Virus record (IMG/VR): IMGVR_UViG_3300033067_000656 | Location: 1 to 42,331 of that record | Length of the DNA stretch: 42,331 nucleotides | Strand: one strand, 5' to 3' | Origin: a virus | Taxonomy: Duplodnaviria; Caudoviricetes | Shown here: positions 3,488-42,021 of the stretch, piece after piece | Position numbering within the stretch: position 1 is the first letter of the stretch | Layout: every line of letters starts with the position of its first letter | Notes under the pieces: model-generated | What the model saw: only the letters and a program-made list of their open reading frames with translations | What the model was told of the DNA's origin: nothing | The model's database searches: none | Made by a program: the position numbers and the translations under genes

Positions 3488-3726
3488 AGAGATGGGGGTT
3501 TTCGTATCCCCCCGGCGTCTCCGGCTTCGAGCCCGAGATCGCGGGCTATCCCGACCCCGACCTGATCGAGAAGCGCGAAGTTTCCTGCCCCATGTGCGAG
3601 TACGAGGGCGAGGTCGATGTCAGCGTTTGGCTTCGCACCGAACGCGACGAGGATGGCGCGTACCAGGTGGACGACGGCACGTTCTACACCTGTCCGAAGT
3701 GCGGAGCGGAGGTGGCGGGTGGATAG
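3475..3726 (+). CDS. Zinc-ribbon protein (CPMC...CPKC)
   Basis: 83 aa with two CxxC pairs. Confidence 0.7.
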   Translation: MPILERWGFSYPPGVSGFEPEIAGYPDPDLIEKREVSCPMCEYEGEVDVSVWLRTERDEDGAYQVDDGTFYTCPKCGAEVAGG

Positions 3727-4081
3727 CTACGCCGGGCTTTTCGAGCCCACCGTTACGACCACCTCAGACTACGGCGTCGCTGGAGGGTGGTTCCAGATCA
3801 TCACGCCCGTTCGGACGCCAATCCCTACAGGCCCAGGAGTCGGTCGCGGCTGGCACGACGCCGATCCGCTACCCCCGCCCATGATCATGCCCGACCTCTG
3901 TCCTTCGCTCAAGGGTAGCGGACTGACGTTGGGCGACGTGTCGCAGGCCATCTACGAGGTTCACGCCATCCTGAAGGCGGCCGGTCCCGACTACGATGGC
4001 GAAGACGTGCGCCGGGCGATGATCCTGAACAGGCTGGAGGCCCGCCTGCACGAGGCGCGGCCCGAGGCGCCGGTGTCATGA
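3719..4081 (+). CDS. Hypothetical protein
   Basis: GTG start overlapping the upstream gene end, coupled to the downstream ATG. Confidence 0.55.
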   Translation: MDSYAGLFEPTVTTTSDYGVAGGWFQIITPVRTPIPTGPGVGRGWHDADPLPPPMIMPDLCPSLKGSGLTLGDVSQAIYEVHAILKAAGPDYDGEDVRRAMILNRLEARLHEARPEAPVS

Positions 4082-4245
4082 GGCTCAAGACGCTGGCATC
4101 CGGCCTGATTGCCGCGTCGGCGTGCTGGATGTGCCTGGCGATCACGCTGGCGATATGCGGGCAGACCTTCAGCTTCGTCCTGTTCCTTGGCGCAGCCTGC
4201 CTTGTTGTCGGCCTGATCGCAGCTTTTCTAGACGAGTACCGATGA
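4078..4245 (+). CDS. Small two-TM membrane protein (55 aa)
   Basis: MRLKTLASGLIAASACWMCLAITLAICGQTFSFVLFLGAACLVVGLIAAFLDEYR; ATGA overlap; below the ORF-track cutoff. Confidence 0.65.
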   Translation: MRLKTLASGLIAASACWMCLAITLAICGQTFSFVLFLGAACLVVGLIAAFLDEYR

Positions 4246-4249
4246 TGTT

Positions 4250-4317
4250 ACCGGCCGGGGAATCCTTGGCGGGAGTCAGCGAGTGGGAAAACGTGAGCCC
4301 AATCGCACCCGGCCGGT
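4250..4317 (+). ncRNA. Structured RNA element copy 1 (multi-stem junction)
   Basis: Closing stem accggccggg/cccggccggt, tggc-ggga-gtca hairpin, gcga...tcgc arm. Confidence 0.55.
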
Positions 4318-4325
4318 CCTTGTTG

Positions 4326-4385
4326 CCGGGTGGGTCGTGGCGGAAAGTCAGCGCGGGAACGCAGACCGAAGTCGCACCCACCCGG
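4326..4385 (+). ncRNA. Structured RNA element copy 2
   Basis: Closing stem ccgggtgggt/acccacccgg (compensatory changes vs copy 1), tggc-ggaaa-gtca hairpin, gcg...tcgc arm. Confidence 0.55.
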
Positions 4386-4412
4386 TTGTTCTTCTGAACG
4401 TGGAGGTGTGAA

Positions 4413-4610
4413 GTGGCTGGAACGAAGCGAGCCCCGAAGGACGTGGTGATTGAACTGGTGGCGCAGGTGTTCGAGCGCACGAGCAAGATCGAGCGGTACT
4501 GGAGGCACCTGACGCCGGAGCATCGGGCGAAGGTGCTGGCCGCCTACCGCAACGAGATCACGCGCCTTGAGGACACGGACAACCGCAGCAACAAGTTCAC
4601 GCTGGACTAG
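4413..4610 (+). CDS. Small helical hypothetical protein flanked by structured RNA elements
   Basis: 65 aa, GTG start, GGAGGT SD. Confidence 0.75.
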   Translation: MAGTKRAPKDVVIELVAQVFERTSKIERYWRHLTPEHRAKVLAAYRNEITRLEDTDNRSNKFTLD

Positions 4611-4619
4611 GTTCTTTGG

Positions 4620-4705
4620 TCTGCGGCGGCGGGTCCGAGGCGGGCTACGCGGAGTTGTGTCTCAGCGCAAGCCGGGGCCACACACACGCCGCCGCAGATC
4701 TTTTC
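4620..4705 (+). ncRNA. Structured element 3 / terminator-like
   Basis: 12-bp stem tctgcggcggcg/cgccgccgcaga enclosing two hairpins (one GCAA loop), followed by tcttttc. Confidence 0.5.
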
Positions 4706-4758
4706 ATTCGCCCGGCCGATGAGCGGCGCGGGCATGGGCAACAGGTTGAGGAGAGACG

Positions 4759-5115
4759 ATGAAAGAGACATCCGAAACGATCCAGGCCGCCCTCCACGAC
4801 CTGAAGCGGCAGACCGCAGCGGTGGAAGCCCGCGTGGCGGCGTTCGAGAAGGAGCAGAGGGAGGAAGAGGAACCGCCCGCGCTGGATAGCCTTGCGCTCG
4901 TCTGCCTTGAAGCAAAGCACGACATGGCCGCCCGCCGCCTCCGCTACGTCGAGCGCGAACTGGCGCGGCTGCGGGAGGGGTTGAAGGTGCAGCCGGATGA
5001 CAGGACCAACGCCACCATTGAGTGGTACGCAACGTCCAGTACTACTGCGGTAGGCGATGATATCCAGGGCATGGCCCGCGAGATCCAGCGCCACCGAAAG
5101 CTGGTGGCGAAGTGA
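4759..5115 (+). CDS. Hypothetical coiled-coil protein
   Basis: 118 aa, GAGGAG SD. Confidence 0.75.
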   Translation: MKETSETIQAALHDLKRQTAAVEARVAAFEKEQREEEEPPALDSLALVCLEAKHDMAARRLRYVERELARLREGLKVQPDDRTNATIEWYATSSTTAVGDDIQGMAREIQRHRKLVAK

Positions 5116-5426
5116 GCGCCCCCGAGATGAAGCCGCGCATCGGCGGCGACGGTGTTCCTCGTTGCAGCGAGAATGAGTGTCCAGCCTACGATGGAAAGCG
5201 TTGCCAACTGCTTGGCTGCCGACCGTCCGTAATCTGCGAGCCCGCTGTTATTGACATGGCAGACCGACTCCGCGCCCCCAGCGCGGCCGAGATGCGGGAG
5301 GCGGCGGCGAAGGTAGCAGAGGAGGGGCGATTCCTGCACGACGACTCGCCCGAGGCCCGATGGGGCAAGGCGTGTGCCGCCGCCATCCGCGCCCTGCCCC
5401 TCCCCGCGCCGGAGGTGCCGGAATGA
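5112..5426 (+). CDS. Hypothetical Cys-rich protein
   Basis: GTGA overlap; C-terminal MREAAAKVAE...CAAAIRAL module typical of phage early proteins. Confidence 0.7.
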   Translation: MSAPEMKPRIGGDGVPRCSENECPAYDGKRCQLLGCRPSVICEPAVIDMADRLRAPSAAEMREAAAKVAEEGRFLHDDSPEARWGKACAAAIRALPLPAPEVPE

Positions 5427-7845: not shown

Positions 7846-10800
7846 GTGGCGAAGCTCCAGCGAGCGATCACCTGCTACAACTCGGCGGCCCTGTCCAGCG
7901 GGATCAGGGCACAGTTGGTGGCGATGGCACCAAAGTATCTCGACGGGTGCATCGACGCGGATGGCACCTACTTCATCGACAACCTGCCCGCCAGCTTCCC
8001 GCTGCGCTACTTCAACCTGACCGACCTGCCGAACAACGGGGCGCAGATGACATGGGGGCTGGCCCGCGCCGCCACGAACGGCATCGCGGACCCCGAGAGC
8101 ATCATGCTCCACTTCCTTGCCGACACGGTGGTCAACATCCTGGGGGTCGACTACCTGGTCAAGGGGTTCGGCGTCGGGACGGCGGCTACCAAGGCGGCCT
8201 CCCGCGTGCCGGTCTACTACGCCCCGGTGTCGGGCACGTTCCCCCGTGTGCTGACGAACTTCTCCTCCTCGGCCATCCGCACCGTATGGCAACAGTACGT
8301 CATTGAGCAGGTATTGACCGTCCCCTACTCGGCCGGGCACTACCCCCTCGGGGTGTGGCTCGACAACGCCACCGACACGACCTTCAACGTAGACGCCGTG
8401 AGCATGAGTCAGGCCGGGCGCGGCGGGCGCGACGTGTGGAACGTCAGCGTGATCGCAGGTGGCGGATCGTGGGCGGCGACCGGGGCCTACGACTACCGGG
8501 TCGTCCCGTCTACCGCTCTCGGGGACGGAATCTCGTCCACCGACTACGCGGCGACCATCGCCTCGGCCACGCAGCACGTCCAACTCGACTGGTCGGGCAG
8601 CGGGACGGGCACCTACAAGATATACCGGAAGCCGCACGCCTCGTCGTGGACCTCGGGCGACTGGCGCATCGCCACAGTGACGGGTGTCACGACCTACATC
8701 GACAACGGGCAGGCCCCCATCGCAGGCAGCGGTGGCCCGAGCCGGGCCGGTGAACTCATCGAGGCCCCGAACGGCACGCGCTTCCTGTCACCGGAGTATG
8801 ACGACTGGAAGTGGAACAGCGGGCACGGGCTCTGGATGAAGGAACTGAAGGATCTCATCGCCACCGCCCCGGCCTGGCTCTCCGGTCGGGCCTGCAAGGT
8901 CGTGGCGAACGTGGCGAACCACCCGGCTACTGGAAGCGGTTGGACCGCCCGCTACTCCAACTTCAACTCGACCGGCGCATCCGTCTGCCACGGCGTCTTC
9001 CGCGAGTTCTCCGGCGCCCCCATCCGAGAGACGGGCATCGACGAGCCGAATAATATGTACACCACCTGGGCTGCGGCCGGTTCGGCCAGCCTCGACGTGT
9101 GGGACACCGGCTACAACAACAACATCTCCTACCCTTCCGGCACGACGGTCGTCGGCGGGTCGACGTTCACCGCCTTCGAGGTGATGTCGGGCATCATCGG
9201 GACGGCGTGGCTCGTGAAGGGCTCGACGACGATGATCCAGGGGTACGCCAACACCTGGGCACCCGACGATGCGGCGTGGCAGTTCAACGCCGACGCCATC
9301 TGGAATATCGACCTCGGGACGCCGGTCGGCGCCCCGTCCGTTCTGGCCTCCGGCACGGTGGGCGGCCGGAACTACAAGGTGTGGGGGCGTGAGTATACGC
9401 AGGGCTACGTCACCGTGCGCTTCCGCAACGACTCGGCCGAGCCGTGCGGGACGACGATGGATGTCAGCGTGACGCTGCCTGCCGGGACGTGGAACCAGGT
9501 CACGGCGCTGGACGGGACGACCTCGGGGTCGGCCACGACCACGTTCACGCACGGGAACGCTCGTGCGTTCATCTTCAAGAAGTCCGGGGCGCCGCCTGTC
9601 GACTCGACCGCCCCTTCTGCGATTTCCACCCTCGCCACCGGAGCGGCAACGTCATCGTCCGTCGCGCTTACATGGACGGCGGTCGGTGACGATGCCGGGA
9701 CGGGTACGGCGACGAGCTATGACGTGCGCTACTCGACCTCGACGATCACCGCAGGCAACTTCAACTCGGCCACCGTCTTCCCGCAGACGATCTCGCCGCA
9801 GGCTTCTGGTGGTTCCGAGTCCCTTACCGTGACGGGTCTACTCCCGTCCACCACCTACTACTTCGCCGTCAAGGCGGGAGACGAGGTGCCGAATTGGGGC
9901 GCGATCTCGAACGTGGTGAGCAAGGCGACGACGGCAGCAGCGGATGTGACGCCTCCGGCCGCGATCTCTACCCTGACGGCAACGAACGTGGCGGGGAGCG
10001 CAAGTTCTGGCGGGTCGCCTCAAGTGCTGCTGTCATGGACCGCACCGTCCGATGCTTCGGGTTGTGTCGAGTACGACATCCGAATCGGCACCGCCACTAT
10101 TACCTCGGGCAACTTTGGTACTCCGGGGTACGGGTCGGTCGCTGATCCCAACAACCACATCCTGAATGTCCCCGTCCCAGGGACGGCAGGGCAGGTCCAG
10201 TCGTTCCTGATCCCCGGTCGCTACAAAACGGACAGCGGGAACATTATTTTCCCGTCCATCCCCGACTTGACCACGCTCTACTTCGCCATCAAGACGAAGG
10301 ATGCGGCGGGCAACTGGTCGGCCATCTCCAACGTGGCGTCGGTCACGACGGGAGCCCTCGGTGATTTTGTCGCACCGAACGCCATCGCGGACCTCGCCGT
10401 GGTGTCATCGACGGACACGACCGTCACGCTGCGCTTCACGAACCCCGGAGACGACACGGGTAACTGTGCCTCATACGAGGGGCGCTACGCCGTCAACACG
10501 TTGACGGCCGGGTCGTATGCAGCCTCTCCGACCATCGCTGGACTGCCCACCCCTGGACCGGCGCAGTCCACGGAAACGGCGGTCGTGCGCGGCCTGAACC
10601 CGGCCACTATCTACTCGTTCGCCATCAAGGCGGTCGATGCGGCGGGTAATGCGTCGGCCATCTCGAACGTCGTGTCCGGTGCGACGAAGGCGTCGGCCCC
10701 CGATCCGGTGGTGGCGACGGCTGTCACGGTCAGGACGCCGGTTGTCTACATCCCACTGACCGCACGAGATGGGACGAAGCCGCTACTCAAGGACTTCCCG

Positions 10801-12075
10801 CAGTACTGCAACCTCTACTGGAACGACAATTGGGGAGCCAACGACGACACGACGCCGGGGCGCGACCAGATCCTTCGGGCGCTGGCGAACCACAAGGTCG
10901 TCATCCTGAACGAGTCCACCACGAACCCGGCCACATCGCTCGGGCACGAGCTTGGAGTACCGGATGCCGCGTCTCGCCTGCGGGCCATGAACTCGGAGAT
11001 CATCGTCGGCATCGCTGGTAACGCTTGGTCGACGAACGCGGCCGATTCGGTCTACTGGCCGTTCCGCTCGCAGCTTCGCACGCTGGCGATTGCGAATGAC
11101 TGGTGGTTGCGCTTCGACAACAACGCACAGGTCTACTCGGACGGCGCAGCGGCGCAGTACCCGATGATCGACATTACCCATCCGGGGTGCCGCAACTGGT
11201 TCGCGGACAACGTGCGCCGGTACTTTATGAACCTCGGCTACGATCAGTACTCGTTCTGGTTCGCGGACGAGATGCAGGCGTCACTGACTGCCGTACCGTC
11301 GCAGGGCGGGAAGGGGCCGTCGAACATCTACCTGTACAACGGGTCCACCACGTCGCGCTCGGCACCGGCCGATGCGACGGCGCGTGACGCGGCATGGGTG
11401 GCGGCCAACACCGCCCTCATGGCGCGGATGCCCGACGTGCTGGTGATGCCGAACGGGACGACCTCGCCCACGCCGACGACCATCGGGCGCATGTGTCAGG
11501 GGATCTACCCGGCCACGAAGCCCGACAACGAACTGGACAACATCTACGCCCACTTCGCCAACACGCGCCGGGCGAACCGGCTCATGTACTACCACACCGA
11601 ATGGGGTAGCGCGATGGCGCAGTGGTTGAACCAGGTCAACCTGACCGACGATCAACTGGTGGCGATGGGGCTGATCTCCGCGACCGGGGCCTATCTGGCG
11701 CAGGGGTCGTGGGCGACGTACCGGACGGCGTGCCAGAACATCGCGTGCTTCGCCTCGGTCTTCGACGGGGTGGCGCATCTGGAGAACGCTCTGATCGGCA
11801 ACTTCCTGCACCCGTGGCAGTACTTCGGGTACGCACCGGGGGCGTTCGGCATCCCGGTCGAGTACGTCGACGGGAGCGGGCGCGAGTTCCCGCAGATCAT
11901 CCCCGAGAAGATCAACCAGGGCAACACGAACAAGTCGGGAATCTACTGGCGTGAGTTCACGAAGGCGACTGTGGCGTTCAACTGGCAGTGGAACGGTGGA
12001 ACGCCGACCGCCCTGACGTGGAGCAAGACGGGCAACTCGATTGCGGCCAATGCGGGCGCGGTGGTGTTCAAGTGA
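7846..12075 (+). CDS. Large modular protein: putative glycoside-hydrolase-like domain, 3x fibronectin type III, second GH-like domain
   Basis: FN3 repeats start at DSTAPSAISTL (~9601), DVTPPAAISTL (~9943) and DFVAPNAIADL (~10363), each with a YYFA(V/I)K..D...N..AISNV-type motif. The flanking domains carry GVWLDN / FWFADE and end in WGREYTQGYV / YWREFTKATVAFN, resembling GHL15-type TIM barrels. Confidence 0.75.
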   Translation: MAKLQRAITCYNSAALSSGIRAQLVAMAPKYLDGCIDADGTYFIDNLPASFPLRYFNLTDLPNNGAQMTWGLARAATNGIADPESIMLHFLADTVVNILGVDYLVKGFGVGTAATKAASRVPVYYAPVSGTFPRVLTNFSSSAIRTVWQQYVIEQVLTVPYSAGHYPLGVWLDNATDTTFNVDAVSMSQAGRGGRDVWNVSVIAGGGSWAATGAYDYRVVPSTALGDGISSTDYAATIASATQHVQLDWSGSGTGTYKIYRKPHASSWTSGDWRIATVTGVTTYIDNGQAPIAGSGGPSRAGELIEAPNGTRFLSPEYDDWKWNSGHGLWMKELKDLIATAPAWLSGRACKVVANVANHPATGSGWTARYSNFNSTGASVCHGVFREFSGAPIRETGIDEPNNMYTTWAAAGSASLDVWDTGYNNNISYPSGTTVVGGSTFTAFEVMSGIIGTAWLVKGSTTMIQGYANTWAPDDAAWQFNADAIWNIDLGTPVGAPSVLASGTVGGRNYKVWGREYTQGYVTVRFRNDSAEPCGTTMDVSVTLPAGTWNQVTALDGTTSGSATTTFTHGNARAFIFKKSGAPPVDSTAPSAISTLATGAATSSSVALTWTAVGDDAGTGTATSYDVRYSTSTITAGNFNSATVFPQTISPQASGGSESLTVTGLLPSTTYYFAVKAGDEVPNWGAISNVVSKATTAAADVTPPAAISTLTATNVAGSASSGGSPQVLLSWTAPSDASGCVEYDIRIGTATITSGNFGTPGYGSVADPNNHILNVPVPGTAGQVQSFLIPGRYKTDSGNIIFPSIPDLTTLYFAIKTKDAAGNWSAISNVASVTTGALGDFVAPNAIADLAVVSSTDTTVTLRFTNPGDDTGNCASYEGRYAVNTLTAGSYAASPTIAGLPTPGPAQSTETAVVRGLNPATIYSFAIKAVDAAGNASAISNVVSGATKASAPDPVVATAVTVRTPVVYIPLTARDGTKPLLKDFPQYCNLYWNDNWGANDDTTPGRDQILRALANHKVVILNESTTNPATSLGHELGVPDAASRLRAMNSEIIVGIAGNAWSTNAADSVYWPFRSQLRTLAIANDWWLRFDNNAQVYSDGAAAQYPMIDITHPGCRNWFADNVRRYFMNLGYDQYSFWFADEMQASLTAVPSQGGKGPSNIYLYNGSTTSRSAPADATARDAAWVAANTALMARMPDVLVMPNGTTSPTPTTIGRMCQGIYPATKPDNELDNIYAHFANTRRANRLMYYHTEWGSAMAQWLNQVNLTDDQLVAMGLISATGAYLAQGSWATYRTACQNIACFASVFDGVAHLENALIGNFLHPWQYFGYAPGAFGIPVEYVDGSGREFPQIIPEKINQGNTNKSGIYWREFTKATVAFNWQWNGGTPTALTWSKTGNSIAANAGAVVFK

Positions 12076-14309: not shown

Positions 14310-17300
14310 TTACGGTCGCTGTGCCCGTTGCCTGCGGTACTCTTCGAGCTTCTTCTTCATCTGTTCAGTGAACCGCTTGCGCTCCTCGGGCGATACGGGG
14401 GGTACGCCTTCGCCACGCTTGCGGTTGCGGGACAGGATCTCCTTCACGGCCGGGGAATCGAAGTTGACTCGCCCGTCCTTGAAAGGGGCCATGTCCTGCG
14501 CTTCCTTCTTCAACTTCCGCCCTTCAATCTGGTAGTTCCTCTCGAAGTCCACGTCGTAGCTGCGGAGCCCGGCCAGGTTCTTGAGAATCGTCTCGGCGTT
14601 CTGGGCGGCCGTGGTGTCAGCCTCGGTGTCCTTCATGGTCGAGTTCATGAACGAGATGGCACGCATGTTCTGGAGCGCGTGCGTCGTCCGTTCCGGCAAC
14701 ATGATGAGCCCCTTGCCGGGGGTGTTCTTGAACCAGTCGACGAGCGGAACCTTGTTGAGTGCCGCCGAGGTGGGGGCGACAAGCCCTTCGGGCAGGTGCA
14801 GCGGGCGAGTACGGCCCTCCACGTCGAACAGGGGGCGACCCGTCTCCAGGTCACGCTTGAACGCCTGCTCGCCCGTTTCCTTGAGGATGGGGTTCAGAGC
14901 CCCGACGCCGTAGACGGCCGGGCCGAGGAGTCCGTGCTGGCCGATGTCCTGCCCCAAAGCCATCACGTCGCTGACGGGCGACATCTTCCCGGCGACCGCC
15001 GTCACCTTGGGCTTGTCCTTCCGGTTCTTGTAGAGGATCGGGAGCATCGGCTTCAGCCAGTCGGGCAGGTTGGCGAACTGCTCCGGCGTCAGATCCTTGC
15101 CGTTCACCAGCCCCGAGACGGCGTGCTGAATGTCGCGGGAGACGGACATCGTGGCGGGTTTGGAGAGGATCTGCTCGACCTGAAGCGGGATGTTCTTCCG
15201 CATCCAGGCGTAGAAGGGGAAGACGCCACGCAGGAAGTCCCGCTCGAAGCGCGAGAGTTCCGAGTAGTCGAAGAGGAACTTCTTGACCATCATCGACGCG
15301 GCGTAGGGCGAGTAGCCCTGCTTCAGGTAGTGGGCGAACCCGGCGATACGGGCGTTCTCCTCGACGAAGCGACCCATGTCGCGGCCATAGGTGATGTATG
15401 CGGCAGGGCTCAAAGGGCTCGACTGGAGAAAGCCCTTGACGCGCCCGACGCGCCCGCCCTTGCGCGGGTCGAGAAGCTCCTGCACGTCCGACCCGAAGTA
15501 GCCGTGCCCCGCCACGCCCGTCTTCTGGGCGAGGCGCATGACCTCGGCGTGGGTCAGGACGGAGCCGTCGTCACGCAGGAGGGCGCCGGGGATGCCAAGC
15601 TGAATCTTCCGCGCCTGCCAGTAGATCGCCGGATCGTCGATCCCCGCGTAGACCTGGAGCTGGTACATATTCGTCAGCCAGTTCCGCAGGTGGAACTCGG
15701 GGAAGATGGTGGTGACGGACTGCTTCCAGATGTTCGTCGCGCCGTGGTAGAAGCGAGCGAACAGGTTGCGTGGACCCGAGTCATCGAGGAAAGTGCGGAC
15801 ACCACCGTTGATGTGGTTCGCCAGTTCCTCGGGGATGAGGAAGTAGTTGGCGCCGAACTTGTCGAGTTCCTTGAAGTTCGGGATGGTCGACGGGTCCAGG
15901 TTGACCAGCGTCCTCCAGTCGCCCGCCATGTCGGATGCCCGCAGCCCCTTCGCCACCGACAGCACGTTCACGAAGTCGGGCGCGTCGGCCAGCCGGGCGA
16001 GTTCGCCCTTGGTGATGAACAGCTTGAGCGGCGGGGCCAGCGCATCCCGATCCTTCATGGTGCGGCGGATCTTCTTCAGGATGGCGGCGGCGGTGCCTTG
16101 CAGACGCCCATCGGTGTTGTTCGCCGGGTTGGCGAGGTCGGCATCCTCGGTCACGCCGAGCGCCTTCTTGAGCAGGTTCTTCACCCCATCGGGGAGGTCG
16201 ACCGTCTCGGGCGCTTCCTTGGACGCCTTGGACATGGGGACGGTCCCGTTCCTGACGATGGCGGCGAGGCGGTCGGCCACGCCTTCGGCCGCCTGCACGT
16301 CGGACGGGCCGCCGCCCGTGCGCCAGACGCCGAGGTCGATGAGCGACTTGTTCAGCGCCTCAACCTTCTTGATCGCCTCCTCCGGGTAGCCCATCTTCCG
16401 CATCCAGTAGTGCGAGTTCACGATGTTCGCGGCGGCGCGGGCGTTCGGGATCTCGGTGATGCCTTCAGCCTTCAAGGCATCGAGGATCTCCTTGCCCGAC
16501 AGACCCATCGAGGAGAGCATCCCGTTGAGCATGTCGTTGTGGACCTGGAACTGGATGGACGAGGCCACGCGGTTCATCAGCGTCGTCACCACGTCGTCGA
16601 CGAGGAGCGGCTTGCCGTTCACCAGCTTGTAGGACCGCTGGATGTCGTCGAACGTGTCCTTGAACTTGCGGGCGTTGGCGAAGCCGGGCGTGCGAAGACC
16701 GCCCTTCGGCGGGCCGCCGAGGACGTAGGCCAGCGGCTTCGAGTAGGCGGCCACGTTGTCGGAGACGTGGGGGAAGTACTCGGGCATGGCGTGGACGATG
16801 GCCTGCCTGCCGTCTTCCGTCCAGATCAGCCCGTCCACGAGGTCGCGGATCGCCCGCCGCTTGGCCCACCCCTCCTTCGAGAGCTTGACCAGATTGTCGG
16901 CAACCTCTTTGGCGAGGTCGTCCCCGATCTCGGGGGACTCACCCAGGGTCTTGCTGACCCACGCCTGGTACTCGGGCATGGACATGCCACCGGGGCCGGG
17001 CGGCCCGCCGTCGATGGGGGGCAGGCCCCCGTGCATGTCCTGTCCGCCCGTGAGCAGGAGCCCGACCGTCGAGCCGCCAGCCTCCCGGTTGGCGATGAAG
17101 TCGCGGGTGGTGGGCGGATTGTTGGCGCCGAAACTGGTCTTCTCGATGGCCGAGGTGGTGGGCCGGTTGGACGGCACGGGCAGGCCCGACCCCTTCAGGG
17201 GGACGCGGGGCTTGCCGATGGCCGGGCGGTTCGGCTGGACCGTCTTCTTTTCGACGACAAAAGCCTTGGACATGAACTCCTGAGCCGTGACCCCCGACTT

Positions 17301-20300
17301 GGAAATCTTCGTGTCGATGATGTTCTCCTTCGGAACATCAGAGGTGACTACCGCATCGCTTAACGAGATGGCATCGCCGGGGGATTTCGTCCCAAGCGTA
17401 AGCTGCTCGGGGGAGGCCTGGATGCTTCCCTTCTTGACCTTGAGGGCCAGGATTCGCCTGCCGTAGCCGTCTACGTTGAGCGGATCACTCCCGACGTACA
17501 GGTGCGGGCTCAGACCTTTGCCCGGCCCGAACGATGCCATCTTGCCCAGAGCGTAGTTCTCCTGAGCCAGCGTTGACGGCTTCTCCCCGGCCTTGATCCC
17601 TTCCTTCAGGAACTTGTCTGCTGTCGCGTCGTCCATCGCCGTGAAGACCCAGACATCGGCGTCTTCGGGAAGGGCATCGAAAGCCTTGGCTCTCGACTCG
17701 TTCGTGTAGCCGGGATGCCACCAGTGGGGGTTCTGCTTCGGTGTTGCAGAGTTGGCTCTGAGCATCGCCTCGCTTGACGCCTTTGGCGACCCCATCTTGA
17801 GCCCCTGCGCCGCCGCCTCCTCCCTGGTAAAAAATTTACCAGTGGCGTCGACCCATCCCGTTTCGACCCCCTCGCCCCCCTCGATGCGGGCCTGGATGTC
17901 GGGCGGGTGGAGTGTGAAGTCGTGCCAGGTCTTGCCGGGGGCGGTGATGATCTCCTCGGCGGCGTCCTTGGCGGCGGGAAAATCCCCAAGATCCCTGACG
18001 ATCACGGCGGGGAACTTGTCTACCCCCAGAAGGTCCAGCGCATCGAAGCGGTGGCCGCCCTCCAGAATGTAGGGGCCGTCCTTGTCGATGGCGACGATGA
18101 GCGGGGTGATCTCCCCGGACTTTCGGATCTCATCGGCCAGCGCAAGGGCGCGATCCCGGCCGTCGACGGTCGTCGCCTTGGACGGGTCGTACTTCGGCGC
18201 GGTGAACTCGGAGCGGCTGATCTCCCTGATCCCGCCAAGCTCCTCGTAGTCGTCGAGCGAGGCGCCGATGGAACTCGTGTTGTCCACCTTCGGGCGGACC
18301 TTGAGCCCGCCGACAGTCTCACCGGCCTTCGGATATCTGGCCCGCAGTTCGTCCACCGCAGCGGCCGGGTCGACGGCCGGAGTCTTCAGCCGCCACGCCG
18401 GGGCGGCGAGGGACGGGGGCTCGGGCGCGGCCGGTTCGGCTTCCCGCGCCACCGACCGCAGCCCCTTGGCCGCCGCCTTCTCGGACTTGGCCGCACGGGA
18501 CTTGAAGACCGAGCGGTCGTAGGCCGCCGCCCGCTTCTCCAGCATGGCCTTGTAGTCTTCAGGATCGTCCCCGTAGCGGGCCTTCAGGAACTCCCCGACC
18601 TTCTGCTCCTTGAACGCCTCGAACTCGTCCCTCGTGAGCCGGGAACGCTCGTCCCGTACCTCCTTGAGGGAGCCCGCAGGCCGCTTCATGGCGGGGTGGG
18701 CTTCGAGCCGGGCGATCTCCTCGGCCGTGTCCGTCTCGTGCGCCTTGTCGAGCCCGGCCTGCACCTTCTGGACCATGCCGTCGATTTCCCCCTCGGCGGC
18801 CAGACGGTCCTGAAGCCGCTGGATCTCGGCGGCCCGCTGCTGCATCTGGGCCTGGAGGGCGGCGGCCCGCTGGTTCGCCCGCTCCAGCCGGGCCAGCGTC
18901 TCGTTCGTGACCCCCTGCGTGGGGGGCGCGGCTTCCAGGGAGCCCGCCAGGGCCCTCTGTTCGGCGGCGACCGACTGGAGATCCGCGTCGAGCCCTTCGG
19001 CCGCCGCCTGCGCGATCCTGAGCCGGTCCTGCGTGGGCTGGAGCATGGGGCGACGGGGCATTTGCGGGGGGACGGGAGCCTCCGGCGCCGGGCCAATGTG
19101 GATCATGGACTTACCGAAAATCTTGCGGTAAGTCTGATCCCACAGGTCGGCGGACTTCTCCAGTTCGTCGGCCTGCTCCTTCAGCCGGGCGGCGTCCCTG
19201 GCGTCCCCTGAGTAGGCGGCCTGCCGCTCCGCGTTGCGGAGGGAGGCCACGTCCATCCGGTGCTGGTTCAGCCGCTTTTCAAGGGTCGAGATGCCCTGCA
19301 CCATCTCCCGCTTCGAGGTGTCATCCCAGGCGCCCGCGATGGCCTCGCCCGCCTGCCGCTGGATCTGGGCCGGATCGTTCGTCCCGAAGTGCCGCAGTTC
19401 CCACTCATCCGGCAGGGCACGGTCGGCCACGACCACGCGGGGCGCCTCCTCCAGCGAGGACCGCACCCGCGCCCACTCCTCCTGCGCCATCGGGGAGGAC
19501 ATCGCCGTCTCGGCCGCCCGGTAGGTGTCGGGCATCGCCTTGTCCACCTTCAGGTGTCGCATCAGCTTCAGGATGGCGTTCTTGTCGCCCCCCTGCGTCT
19601 GGAGGTCGAAGAGGGCATCAACCGCCTCGCGGGACAGGTCGCCCTTCTGGTTCATCGCCATGCGGAGCCAGCGCACCGTGCCGTCGTAGATGCGCGGGTC
19701 GCCCATCTTCCCCTCGATGATCTGCTGCGGGTACTTGTGGAACGCCTCGTCGAGCCCCTGCATCAGGGACGACGAAGCCTTCCGCAGTTTCCCGTAGGCA
19801 CCGGGGATCGCCCCGACGCCCGGCTTCAGCAACTCTGGGTTGAACTCCCGCAGGTAGCGGTTGCCCTTCGTCATCAGCCGGGCCGCGCCCTCGGCCAGCG
19901 GCTTCGGTAAAACCTGCGCCTCGGCCACCGGGTTGTGGATGTCGGGGAACGGAATCGTGACGGGACGGATCTTCGTCTCGGGGTGCAGCGTGACCATCTT
20001 GAAGGCGTCGTCCTTGTAGGCGTCGACGAGCTTCTTCATCACGTCCTTCGGCAGCACATCGCCGGGCTTGTACTTGCCCATGATGCCGGGGTGATCTTCC
20101 ATCACCTTCGCCCACGTCGCATCGTCCATCGCCCACTTCATCTTGCCGACGTTGATGCGCTTCATGCCGGGAAGCTGGACGCCGGGGAAGAGGTACTGCC
20201 CCCGCTCGACCTTCTCGGCCAGCGTGACGCCCATGTTCAACTTGTCTTCCTGCCCCGACTTCAGGAGTTTCACGATGGTCCGCGCCTCGCGGTTCCCGTT

Positions 20301-21044
20301 CTTCGCCATCGCCTCCCAATTCGGCATGGCCGTGCCCGCCATCTGCTCCTCGGTGCGGGCCTGCGTGAACATCTCGGCCGCCTTGCCGATCTTCGAGAGC
20401 CCGGCCCCCTTCAGGATGTTGTAAGGGTTCGCCGCCAGGTCGAGCGCGAACCCGGCCGGGTAGGCGATCCACGGGTTCTTGACGCCCATCTCCTGCAAGG
20501 CTTCTGCGTTGAACGTGCGCGTGTCCTTGCCGGGGCCAACACCGAACAGCACCTCGGGACCGGACAGGACGCCCTTGTGGATCAGGTCGCGGAAGTTGCC
20601 CTCACCCTTCAGGAGTCTCGCCAACTGGAGGGCCGTGCCCGCTTCCGAGTACGTCCCGGCCGCCATCGCGTCCATCGCCTTCTGGGCGAAGAAGCGGGAC
20701 TTCTCCAGCTTGGGGTCGAAGTGTTCGATGACCGACTTGAAGGCGTCGACGGCATCCAGCATGTGCGGCGTGGCGATGCGGGCCAGCTTGTGGAACGGAT
20801 GCTCGTTTTGAGGCGTGGACTCGATGGACTGGTAGATCGGGTTGGCTTCCCGCTTCTGGCGGTGGAAGGCCATGTTCTTGCTGATGAACTCCCCGGTCGG
20901 TGCCACATTGACCGACTTACCGAGCAGGCGGGCGTTCTGGTCGGCATGAGGAGTCTCGGCATCACCACTAAATGGAGGGATGCCGTTGGTGTACTCGTCC
21001 TCCCCGGTGTAGGCGGGGATGCCGTCCGTGTAGGTGTCGGTCAT
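14310..21044 (-). CDS. Large internal virion / DNA-ejection polyvalent protein with ParB-like and ADP-ribosyltransferase-like inserts
   Basis: 2244 aa from MTDTY (ATGA overlap). C-terminal EENARIAGF...FDYSELSRFER...FPFYAW motif typical of LPD38-type ejection proteins. ParB ITPLIV...ILEGGHRFDAL at ~17995-18320; ART-like segment at ~17316-17660. Confidence 0.75.
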   Translation of the reverse strand: MTDTYTDGIPAYTGEDEYTNGIPPFSGDAETPHADQNARLLGKSVNVAPTGEFISKNMAFHRQKREANPIYQSIESTPQNEHPFHKLARIATPHMLDAVDAFKSVIEHFDPKLEKSRFFAQKAMDAMAAGTYSEAGTALQLARLLKGEGNFRDLIHKGVLSGPEVLFGVGPGKDTRTFNAEALQEMGVKNPWIAYPAGFALDLAANPYNILKGAGLSKIGKAAEMFTQARTEEQMAGTAMPNWEAMAKNGNREARTIVKLLKSGQEDKLNMGVTLAEKVERGQYLFPGVQLPGMKRINVGKMKWAMDDATWAKVMEDHPGIMGKYKPGDVLPKDVMKKLVDAYKDDAFKMVTLHPETKIRPVTIPFPDIHNPVAEAQVLPKPLAEGAARLMTKGNRYLREFNPELLKPGVGAIPGAYGKLRKASSSLMQGLDEAFHKYPQQIIEGKMGDPRIYDGTVRWLRMAMNQKGDLSREAVDALFDLQTQGGDKNAILKLMRHLKVDKAMPDTYRAAETAMSSPMAQEEWARVRSSLEEAPRVVVADRALPDEWELRHFGTNDPAQIQRQAGEAIAGAWDDTSKREMVQGISTLEKRLNQHRMDVASLRNAERQAAYSGDARDAARLKEQADELEKSADLWDQTYRKIFGKSMIHIGPAPEAPVPPQMPRRPMLQPTQDRLRIAQAAAEGLDADLQSVAAEQRALAGSLEAAPPTQGVTNETLARLERANQRAAALQAQMQQRAAEIQRLQDRLAAEGEIDGMVQKVQAGLDKAHETDTAEEIARLEAHPAMKRPAGSLKEVRDERSRLTRDEFEAFKEQKVGEFLKARYGDDPEDYKAMLEKRAAAYDRSVFKSRAAKSEKAAAKGLRSVAREAEPAAPEPPSLAAPAWRLKTPAVDPAAAVDELRARYPKAGETVGGLKVRPKVDNTSSIGASLDDYEELGGIREISRSEFTAPKYDPSKATTVDGRDRALALADEIRKSGEITPLIVAIDKDGPYILEGGHRFDALDLLGVDKFPAVIVRDLGDFPAAKDAAEEIITAPGKTWHDFTLHPPDIQARIEGGEGVETGWVDATGKFFTREEAAAQGLKMGSPKASSEAMLRANSATPKQNPHWWHPGYTNESRAKAFDALPEDADVWVFTAMDDATADKFLKEGIKAGEKPSTLAQENYALGKMASFGPGKGLSPHLYVGSDPLNVDGYGRRILALKVKKGSIQASPEQLTLGTKSPGDAISLSDAVVTSDVPKENIIDTKISKSGVTAQEFMSKAFVVEKKTVQPNRPAIGKPRVPLKGSGLPVPSNRPTTSAIEKTSFGANNPPTTRDFIANREAGGSTVGLLLTGGQDMHGGLPPIDGGPPGPGGMSMPEYQAWVSKTLGESPEIGDDLAKEVADNLVKLSKEGWAKRRAIRDLVDGLIWTEDGRQAIVHAMPEYFPHVSDNVAAYSKPLAYVLGGPPKGGLRTPGFANARKFKDTFDDIQRSYKLVNGKPLLVDDVVTTLMNRVASSIQFQVHNDMLNGMLSSMGLSGKEILDALKAEGITEIPNARAAANIVNSHYWMRKMGYPEEAIKKVEALNKSLIDLGVWRTGGGPSDVQAAEGVADRLAAIVRNGTVPMSKASKEAPETVDLPDGVKNLLKKALGVTEDADLANPANNTDGRLQGTAAAILKKIRRTMKDRDALAPPLKLFITKGELARLADAPDFVNVLSVAKGLRASDMAGDWRTLVNLDPSTIPNFKELDKFGANYFLIPEELANHINGGVRTFLDDSGPRNLFARFYHGATNIWKQSVTTIFPEFHLRNWLTNMYQLQVYAGIDDPAIYWQARKIQLGIPGALLRDDGSVLTHAEVMRLAQKTGVAGHGYFGSDVQELLDPRKGGRVGRVKGFLQSSPLSPAAYITYGRDMGRFVEENARIAGFAHYLKQGYSPYAASMMVKKFLFDYSELSRFERDFLRGVFPFYAWMRKNIPLQVEQILSKPATMSVSRDIQHAVSGLVNGKDLTPEQFANLPDWLKPMLPILYKNRKDKPKVTAVAGKMSPVSDVMALGQDIGQHGLLGPAVYGVGALNPILKETGEQAFKRDLETGRPLFDVEGRTRPLHLPEGLVAPTSAALNKVPLVDWFKNTPGKGLIMLPERTTHALQNMRAISFMNSTMKDTEADTTAAQNAETILKNLAGLRSYDVDFERNYQIEGRKLKKEAQDMAPFKDGRVNFDSPAVKEILSRNRKRGEGVPPVSPEERKRFTEQMKKKLEEYRRQRAQRP
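17824..17842. promoter_or_regulatory. Intragenic copy of the palindrome CTGGTAAA-aaa-TTTACCAG
   Basis: 18/18 reverse complement of 1013-1030; forces rare codons (ggt aaa ttt ttt). Confidence 0.65.
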
Positions 21045-22006
21045 TGACTCACGGGCCTGTTCTTCTTCTGCCACCCGATAGCGGCCATCGTGAACGCCTT
21101 GTTATAGGCGTTGGAGCCCGGCGTGTAGCCCTTGGCGACAAGTTCCTTGTGGATACCTGACTGGACATCTGGAGGGATCGGGCCGGGTTCATGCCCAGAG
21201 GTGGCTCCCATCGCCGCGCCGAGCGTAGGCGTCATGTACCCCTGACCACCGCCCTGCATGGACGAACCGAGAGTCGGAGCGGGCGACACGGGGAACGAGA
21301 CCCCCGGCCCCTTCTGGTACGGAGCGGCGGGCGTCTCGATGGCATCGTCGGTCGCACCGGGAACGTCGGGTCCGTCCTCTTCACCGGGCGCGACAGGCAT
21401 CGGCGGCGCCGTTCCGGGGTCGTAATCGAGGACTCCCGTGGCCCTCTGGAACAACTCGGGCACCTGAGACTCCAGAGAATCCTTCTGCTCGCGCAGGCTG
21501 TTGATCTCGTCGATGGCCTTGGCCTGCTCCTCGGGGGAGAGGAAGTCGAGCCCATTCTGAAGATCCGACATGCGAGACGCGATGCTCCGCGCCATCGTGC
21601 CGACCTCGCGCCCCTGGGAGGCAAGGATGTCGGCACGCTGCCGTTCGGTCAGGCCCCTCTGGTTCAACAACGCGGCCTTGAGCGTGGTGTACGAAGACAG
21701 AGATCCGAGGTACTTCCTGATCTCCCTGTCCGCAGCACTGCTTTTCAGCTTCGCATCGAGGGCGTTCTTCCGTTCTTCTGGCGTGGTCTGGTGAAGCACG
21801 GAATCACGGTAGGCGTCGTTCTTGACGCGCTCGTTGTCCAGTCGCAGCTTGTTGTACTGATCCTCGATGGCCTGCCGACTGCGCTGGTAGGCCACCTGGT
21901 CTTCGTACCGGCGATCCGCTTCGCGCTTCTCGCGGTTGGCGTTGAGCCCCTTGAACAGGCCGCTTCCCGCAGCGAGAAGCCCCTCACCCAGAGTGATGTT
22001 AGCCAC
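21041..22006 (-). CDS. Internal virion / ejection protein
   Basis: Gly-rich amphipathic N-terminus, coiled coil, position before the largest ejection gene. Confidence 0.6.
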   Translation of the reverse strand: MANITLGEGLLAAGSGLFKGLNANREKREADRRYEDQVAYQRSRQAIEDQYNKLRLDNERVKNDAYRDSVLHQTTPEERKNALDAKLKSSAADREIRKYLGSLSSYTTLKAALLNQRGLTERQRADILASQGREVGTMARSIASRMSDLQNGLDFLSPEEQAKAIDEINSLREQKDSLESQVPELFQRATGVLDYDPGTAPPMPVAPGEEDGPDVPGATDDAIETPAAPYQKGPGVSFPVSPAPTLGSSMQGGGQGYMTPTLGAAMGATSGHEPGPIPPDVQSGIHKELVAKGYTPGSNAYNKAFTMAAIGWQKKNRPVSQ

Positions 22007-39093: not shown

Positions 39094-39337
39094 GCTGGAT
39101 CACCTCCGTTCCGTTCATGCAGATCGTGTGCCCGGCGATGTAGGTCAACTGGAAACAGCGGGCCATGTCGCCGCGCACCGTCTGGTGGCCGAACACGCGG
39201 TCGTTGATCTCGAAGTCGAACACGAGGACGGCGTGCTGCATGTTGTACTGGTCGCGCAGCCGATCCAGAAACTCGTCGATCTCCTGGTTCATGTTCTGGT
39301 TCATCGTCTTCGCCTGGTCCTGCACTTCGTCAGACAC
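39086..39337 (-). CDS. Hypothetical protein
   Basis: 83 aa, GGAGGG SD, downstream of the leftward promoter. Confidence 0.7.
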   Translation of the reverse strand: MSDEVQDQAKTMNQNMNQEIDEFLDRLRDQYNMQHAVLVFDFEINDRVFGHQTVRGDMARCFQLTYIAGHTICMNGTEVIQRG

Positions 39338-39364
39338 CTTGCCCTCCGTCGAATGAGAAACACC

Positions 39365-39393
39365 TTGATGTAGTACAACCTCTCAGTTATTCT
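39365..39393 (+). promoter_or_regulatory. Rightward sigma70 promoter TTGATG-N17-TATTCT
   Basis: Upstream of the RHH gene. Confidence 0.55.
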
Positions 39394-39417
39394 GCCAGCG
39401 AGGGCGCAGGGTGTCAA
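39389..39417 (-). promoter_or_regulatory. Leftward sigma70 promoter TTGACA-N17-CAGAAT with extended -10 TG
   Basis: Perfect -35; its -10 overlaps the -10 of the rightward promoter. Confidence 0.65.
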
Positions 39418-41904: not shown

Positions 41905-42021
41905 GGTGAGGGCAGTAGGCATAGGTAGGGCCAAATCGCATCTCAGCGCTCCCCACTCTTTCCCACATTTCTACTAAGAAAAGGGAGCCTTTCAGCCCTA
42001 CCCTAGTCCTACTGCCCTACC
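41905..42021. repeat. Inverted repeat with GTAGG iterons, candidate replication origin
   Basis: ggtgagggcagtaggcataggtagggc (41905-41931) vs gccctaccctagtcctactgccctacc (41995-42021), with an AT-richer centre. Confidence 0.65.

Follow-up and report, generated by a model that had tools for sequence, protein, structure and literature searches.

Structured RNAs of several kinds are known from bacteriophages. Stable, stem-closed small RNAs of unclear function, which are processed from polycistronic transcripts, are encoded by T4 (rnaC and rnaD) and T5, and structured elements at gene boundaries are represented by the intercistronic RNase III sites of the T7 early mRNA and by ribozymes clustered in phage operons. 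The HK022 put element lies just downstream of the early promoter and is an obligate pair of adjacent stem-loops, the loops of the P1 c4 and P4 CI RNAs can pair with conserved targets that the phage itself transcribes, and CsrA/RsmA sponges carry several ANGGA motifs in their loops. In the T-box antiterminator the UGGN sequence is flanked by helices similar in make-up to those of the RNA described here. This UGGN pairs with the NCCA end of a tRNA (PMC7778990). Furthermore, phage small RNAs acting as mimics have a precedent in the RNA anti-CRISPRs (Racrs), which are described as solitary CRISPR repeat mimics (Camara-Wilpert et al. 2023, PMC10651486), and variable phage arrays, whose units are gained or lost between close relatives, are reported for the non-coding RNAs of the UG27 reverse transcriptase (bioRxiv 10.64898/2026.09.22.753630).

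The stretch of DNA analysed here, in the following called the window, is a complete virus record of 42,331 nt with a GC content of 63.9%. Profile searches of its ORFs place portal, terminase and capsid genes on the minus strand and exonuclease, ERF-like annealing protein, HNH, RusA and primase genes on the plus strand, and the number of tRNA genes is 0. The best match of the terminase to a cultured relative is 27%, so the virus is without a close cultured relative, and among cultured phages and plasmids BLAST found nothing meaningful. At 955-1095 strong hairpins are followed by apparent divergent promoters (minus-strand site 1046; TTGACA at 1066-1071), which enclose an inverted repeat. A protein of 2254 aa encoded on the minus strand (14310-21074), with a weak match to a ParB-like nuclease near residues 950-1037, is probably a virion ejection protein.

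Two structured units lie next to each other on the plus strand, unit 1 at 4250..4317 (68 nt) and unit 2 at 4325..4386 (62 nt), separated by a U-rich linker of 7 nt (4318..4324, plus strand) which is a candidate nuclease entry site. A U-rich spacer (4246..4249) connects the stop codon of the upstream ORF, encoding 55 hydrophobic amino acids (4078..4245), with unit 1, and a U-rich 3' flank follows unit 2 (4387..4396). Downstream are an ORF for 65 aa of an unknown family (4413..4610) and a different stem-closed unit with U-rich flanks and a U tail (4618..4700), all on the plus strand. The presence of two adjacent units in this gap was already proposed in an earlier reading of the letters (the sequence-only reading), and they were recovered as such, including the 10-bp stem closing each of them, the inner pairs of which have probabilities of 0.97-1.0 when folded in context. 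By itself, a closing stem of 10 bp is no rarity, as 26 such segments of 50-124 nt exist in the window. The likeness of both units is nevertheless beyond chance, since unit 2 is recovered with a covariance model of just unit 1 on searching both strands of the 42-kb window (27.3 bits, E 0.0017) and since the folding z-scores are −3.4 for unit 1 and −4.7 for unit 2 (300 dinucleotide shuffles each). The compensatory change claimed between the copies was confirmed by two double changes at stem pairs 6 and 7. A leader tgtt(a/g), on the other hand, is not conserved; the conserved feature is U-richness only.

The same fold is predicted for all three full copies, namely unit 1 and one copy in each of two other phage sequences (G003 and L343, see below). 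It is a three-way junction composed of the 10-bp closing stem P1, the arm P2, one purine, the 4-bp stem P3 capped by an internal loop and an outer hairpin, and one A. A core of 18 nt (4260..4277, plus strand) is invariant in the three full copies and forms the predicted arm with the loop UGGC at 4267-4270, and the outer hairpin differs completely between them. For P2 two alternative folds were obtained in the full copies, UCCU[UGGC]GGGA with a probability of 0.84-0.94 and UGGC[GGGA]GUCR with 0.05-0.15 (loop in brackets); because the P2 sequence is invariant, covariation cannot choose between them. The sequence of a tggc-GGRA(A)-gtca hairpin, as proposed before, is indeed present in units 1 and 2, but other folds are predicted to be favoured: its probability is about 0 in unit 2 and 0.15 in unit 1, against 0.84 there for UCCU[UGGC]GGGA. 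Likewise, the stretch GGGAA..CG..GA..CC..AA is common to both units but not conserved in the homologs from G003 and L343. According to these predictions the window units are copies of a three-way-junction RNA, with unit 2 as a degenerate paralog, because little of the core's 5' half is left in unit 2, whose predicted structure is an unbranched rod of 16 bp, a 5x4 internal loop and 6 bp. The plus strand folds 3-6 kcal/mol better than the minus strand in all three full copies, which agrees with the direction of the operon.

G003 is a 47-kb viral genome and a distant relative, with a capsid protein 52% identical to that of the window. It was found by a capsid-protein alignment which led to three viral loci, the others being two near-identical close contigs (G001 and G002) that do not reach the motif region. 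The single copy of G003 (L237, 1501-1566) is detected by the model from unit 1 only with 64 bits (E 6e-11). In a whole-genome BLAST of the window against G003 the unit appears as an island (80% over 69 nt, E 4e-8), with no DNA alignment in either of the flanking genes. The G003 copy is located upstream of a homolog of the 65-aa gene; both versions of this gene share 25 of 65 residues as protein and 100 of 195 positions as codon-aligned DNA. The copy in L343 (1484-1545; 66.8 bits, E 2.9e-9 with a model built without that copy) is the 1 true copy among the 80 hits that a pattern gave in 185,579 prokaryote genomes, and it resides in a prophage. It begins 3 nt after a RecT-like gene on an unrelated 10-kb contig of a lambdoid-type prophage with integrase and DnaB-like genes (names from translations by eye). 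Within the first 33 nt the G003 and L343 copies are identical to unit 1 at 30 and 32 positions, respectively, and the three full copies among themselves at 29-32. A contig of the RNA run X19 contains a diverged unit 1 (7 letters, 2 gaps) and skips unit 2. Four full sequences of the family (unit 1, unit 2, G003 and L343) plus one partial view are available.

The tandem arrangement as such, regarded earlier as the motif, did not hold: the conserved unit is the single module, which exists in single copy in X19, G003 and L343. Downstream of the module, the window and G003 have the same small gene, and L343, which contains no homolog of it, has four other structured units and a different gene; the module is independent of the downstream gene. 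With three phage sequences of two kinds it is also mobile between phage types. In an alignment of the four sequences, which was fitted to the model and is with n=4 too small for a rigorous test, 98.8% of 86 cells pair compared to 27-44% in slid controls, and 7 of 22 pairs show double-sided changes (3 in P1, 4 in P3 and the loosely aligned outer hairpin).

A selected RNA structure outside Rfam, as the sequence-only reading had it, is borne out by the homologs with compensatory changes in two other phage sequences. Rfam 15 gave 0 hits in the window at the gathering threshold, the best local hit having E 1.2, and nothing at E 5 or below was obtained for the units in L383 or L237. In the literature no description of the motif was found, and the exact 18-nt core occurs in none of the papers searched. 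The core is absent from seven supplementary files on candidate viral structured RNAs, which represent a part of the supplements of PMC10690425 and one of which is perhaps incomplete, and the part of PMC5737381 that was covered contains nothing relevant to the motif. Judged by sequence comparison, this phage RNA family is real, selected and uncatalogued.

The designation of the gap as non-coding needs a restriction, since a frame of 51 codons (4242-4397) overlaps the upstream stop as ATGA. The ATG at 4242 and a frame through the core that is open in all three phage sequences would suit a gene for a small, internally repeated protein (4242-4397 or 4122-4397). However, this frame is not conserved as a coding sequence. 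Six codons of the core show no synonymous change, though the neighbouring gene is about 51% identical in DNA across lineages; the G003 copy is 2 nt shorter, which puts its 3' part in another reading frame; no start codon of the candidate frame is common to the phage sequences; and the substitutions in the units are paired across stems. Coding was therefore rejected after a conserved coding signal in the ORF of the gap, which would have spoken against an RNA, was looked for, and a small protein gene or a chance duplication is extremely improbable.

The family is rare in the collections searched. Three core-based patterns applied to IMG/VR yielded only the G003 copy as a true one (1 of 62, 1 of 4 and 1 of 16 hits). 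Two patterns derived from the window copies, which would miss the G003 variant, gave 0 true copies among 25 hits and 0 among 118 hits (60 of 64 parts) in viral contigs, and among 88 hits in metagenome contigs there was no true copy with window-copy patterns that predate the G003 homolog and would miss its variant. There was no motif match in 60 relatives of bin G004, to which the prophage contig is assigned, a search with the ERF protein gave no related loci, and a representative search no additional copies. A look-alike upstream of the scaffold gene of freshwater phages (L151, L252 and kin; 2 such loci among 25) was rejected because it is without the conserved closing stem and has no score with model R2. 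In this freshwater phage family (L151 at 2100-2190 and some 40 loci like it among L241-L302) the scaffold gene is directly preceded by a hairpin and a conserved sequence of the extended −10 type, opposite tRNA-Thr, possibly a site of translational autoregulation.

The HK022 put element, the P1 c4 and P4 CI RNAs and the CsrA-binding sRNAs are structured RNAs of similar size, but their defining features are missing in the units described here, and the module belongs to none of the known RNA families tested. GC-rich stems followed by U-rich runs within a long operon could point to a control of elongation, by terminator-like stems with U tails or by put-like antiterminators for the 11-kb operon. 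A terminator scan, however, lists no site at either unit. A put site is a two-hairpin element close to its promoter, but some 3.2 kb separate the units from the likely early promoter (near 1066), provided that no internal promoter of unusual type serves them, and in the prophage the module comes about 2.7 kb after the start of the operon; relatives with one copy exist as well. The put-like antiterminator among the earlier suggestions thus found no support, and a role in elongation is improbable. Still less probable is an antisense regulator of phage transcripts of the P1 c4 or P4 CI type. It would be in line with the size and the processed, stem-closed shape, but there is no Rfam match, the core is self-paired in the predicted fold, and no complement longer than 10 nt is present in the three phage sequences (two of them partial genomes), the longest ones having 9-10 nt at unrelated and unshared places. 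A decoy for CsrA-type proteins, also suggested before, is not supported, as the A-N-G-G-A context occurs at 0 of 11 GGA trinucleotides in the four copies. Complementarity to the T-arm of tmRNA was dismissed: the tmRNA of G004 ends differently, and the 11-mer in question occurs 4 times in the bin, the motif included.

The units do not stand alone. In the window, single or paired units are found at gene boundaries, 3-5 nt after stop codons; in G003 a different unit precedes the module directly and another one follows the small gene; and in L343 a row of five unlike units (62-116 nt, all with a GC-rich closing stem) starts with the module. The four further stem-closed units of L343 (1560-1903, corresponding to G004:C87 8459-8802) have no Rfam or cultured-phage match. 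In the segment 1715-1776 two helices, of 6 and 9 bp, can form that cross each other, and the last unit (1788-1903) has a multi-branch fold with AGUA/GAA-like strands. A pairwise comparison of 11 units, the four family members aside, showed just one 10-mer in common. Their flanks are U-rich: U makes up 32 of 55 nt on the 5' side and 38 of 77 nt on the 3' side, the background being 13-16%; the boundaries were drawn by hand from the stems and short linkers were counted on both sides. The neighbouring modules are swapped between relatives: one relative carries unit 1 without unit 2, and in all four runs compared another unit or a shortened one stands in the place of 4618-4700. Wastewater, river and activated sludge are the labels of the sequencing runs that contain a part of 3500-5200 (runs sharing few words did not count towards the habitat), and the four compared runs cover the region. 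Two other intergenic segments of the window are an 83-nt one at 39333-39415, with a 10-bp closing stem in the late-strand region, and a 110-nt one after the primase gene (41909-42018), with a long closing stem and nested hairpins, which could be another unit or a replication origin.

Such a gain and loss of units between close relatives is reminiscent of the UG27 arrays. The UG27 units, however, are described as about 135-167 nt long with one fold, and they template cDNA for an adjacent reverse transcriptase (bioRxiv 10.64898/2026.09.22.753630), whereas the units here are 62-116 nt long and have unlike folds. No reverse transcriptase was detected among 55 ORFs with PHROGs and 30 with Pfam, nor by eye in the prophage fragment L384.

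As the best explanation, held tentatively and with somewhat less than even confidence, the modules would be cut out of the early message as small RNAs that bind a host factor. The units would be transcribed within the early operon of the plus strand, and a host single-strand nuclease of the RNase E type may cut this transcript in the U-rich linkers. Trimming would halt at the closing stems, so that each unit persists as a small RNA, and the freed unit would act in trans, its invariant core being the part that contacts a host protein or RNA. In a general sense this takes up the processed small RNA or decoy of the sequence-only reading. A junction and an arm that stay constant while the stems next to them vary freely look like a binding surface, and for mere cutting, five different folds in one gap would be more than is needed. 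The position 3-5 nt after stop codons at gene boundaries, on the other hand, fits a cis signal equally well.

A cis function is rather unlikely but clearly the more serious of the remaining possibilities. The units would then punctuate the early message, as a cut site (for RNase III or a ribozyme of an undescribed class) or as an exonuclease-blocking stem, and give the cistrons upstream or downstream a stability of their own. In all three phage sequences they are situated at cistron boundaries just after stop codons, and the size, the invariant core and the dispensable outer hairpin fit small self-cleaving ribozymes. Moreover, the rod of unit 2 with its 5x4 internal loop resembles the RNase III sites of phage T7. 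With regard to the roughly two turns of near-continuous double helix typical of such sites, unit 1 offers 10 bp plus the arm stacked at the junction, and unit 2 the rod of 16 bp, 5x4 loop and 6 bp. Against this stands that no ribozyme family of Rfam matches even at E 10, that neither a hammerhead nor an HDV core is recognizable by eye on either strand, and that RNase III sites usually keep their shape and not an invariant sequence of 18 nt. Five unlike folds in a row in L343 are also hard to reconcile with one cutting function. In comparison with the T7 sites and the operon ribozymes, the units described here differ by the invariant core, the branched fold and the several unlike folds per gap, and in comparison with the T4 and T5 RNAs by their position between early genes without tRNAs, the exchange between relatives and the missing Rfam match.

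For a release as small RNAs acting in trans, the Racrs are the nearest parallel, as they are small non-coding RNAs of phages, encoded in accessory regions, that occupy a host protein in trans, which is the mode proposed here (PMC10651486). They differ in being mimics of a solitary CRISPR repeat in contrast to a three-way junction of 62-68 nt, and a host RNA mimicked by the core was not found in the scan of 185,579 prokaryote genomes described above.

A particular partner could be the tRNA end. In the manner of the T-box bulge, the loop UGGC together with the GGGAG after it would pair with uncharged G73 tRNAs (e.g. tRNA-Asp) at their free 3' end, and during infection tRNA ends would be hidden or held by the RNA. 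All four copies have UGGC, which is a predicted tetraloop in 3 of them, and like the UGGN of the T-box antiterminator it would be exposed and able to pair with a tRNA NCCA (PMC7778990). In the proxy genome G137 (Gemmatimonadota group) the core is exactly complementary to the tRNA-Asp 3' end over 9 nt, more than for any other of the 46 tRNAs compared (of 47; one was dropped as too short), a length that 96 of 16,924 phage windows of 25 nt (0.6%) reach for any tRNA. But the resemblance was found post hoc among many, and G137 is a proxy for the real host. Of the 201 genomes sampled for that phylum, 13 have the tRNA-Asp end of the G137 type; in a second phylum sample 23 of 81 genomes had a match, 0 of those with the 9-nt end. 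Co-folding of unit 1, unit 2 and the G003 copy with tRNA-Asp was not favourable, in a model that does not cover loop-end pairing. In contrast to the T-box as described in PMC7778990, there is no Stem I or specifier loop and no terminator switch, and UGGC is placed in a predicted hairpin loop instead of a bulge; units of 62-68 nt that start 3-5 nt after a stop codon show no Stem I and no Rfam T-box match. Pairing with tRNA ends is thus a doubtful proposal with little probability.

Just a few leads point to the hosts. In a protein of 1409 aa (window 7846-12075) the fibronectin-III repeats are like those in surface proteins of Ca. Zixibacteria and Ca. Eisenbacteria, the groups in which the clusters resembling this region are commonest, and this resemblance may serve as a lead, and no more, to a host of that type. 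Its gene sits in the early operon of the plus strand, away from the tail genes, and is conserved in part in G003. The contig of the prophage copy has a GC content of 70% compared to about 47% for bin G004, so it is probably mis-binned and G004 not its host. This prophage contig (C87) and the tRNA-rich contig C1, which has a second tmRNA-like match, give the 47%-GC genome a contaminated look.

If the units act in trans, as preferred here, they would resemble the Racrs or the stable small RNAs of phages, and if they act in cis the T7 RNase III sites. As a processing signal only, the module would still be a new motif family, of ordinary significance. A far-reaching version, speculative and with a low probability, is that the early operons of phages with an uncultured host lineage contain an exchangeable arsenal of small folded RNAs, an RNA counterpart of anti-defence cassettes. 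The family described here would in that case be a free-standing, T-box-like binder which grips the CCA end of uncharged tRNAs via UGGC and thereby blinds starvation or anti-phage sensors that read tRNA ends. Host takeover and counter-defence by phages have been described almost wholly in terms of proteins. A sequence-invariant RNA module that is common to a podovirus-like phage and a lambdoid-type prophage, and that stands among others which are swapped, points to a toolkit under selection at the level of RNA.
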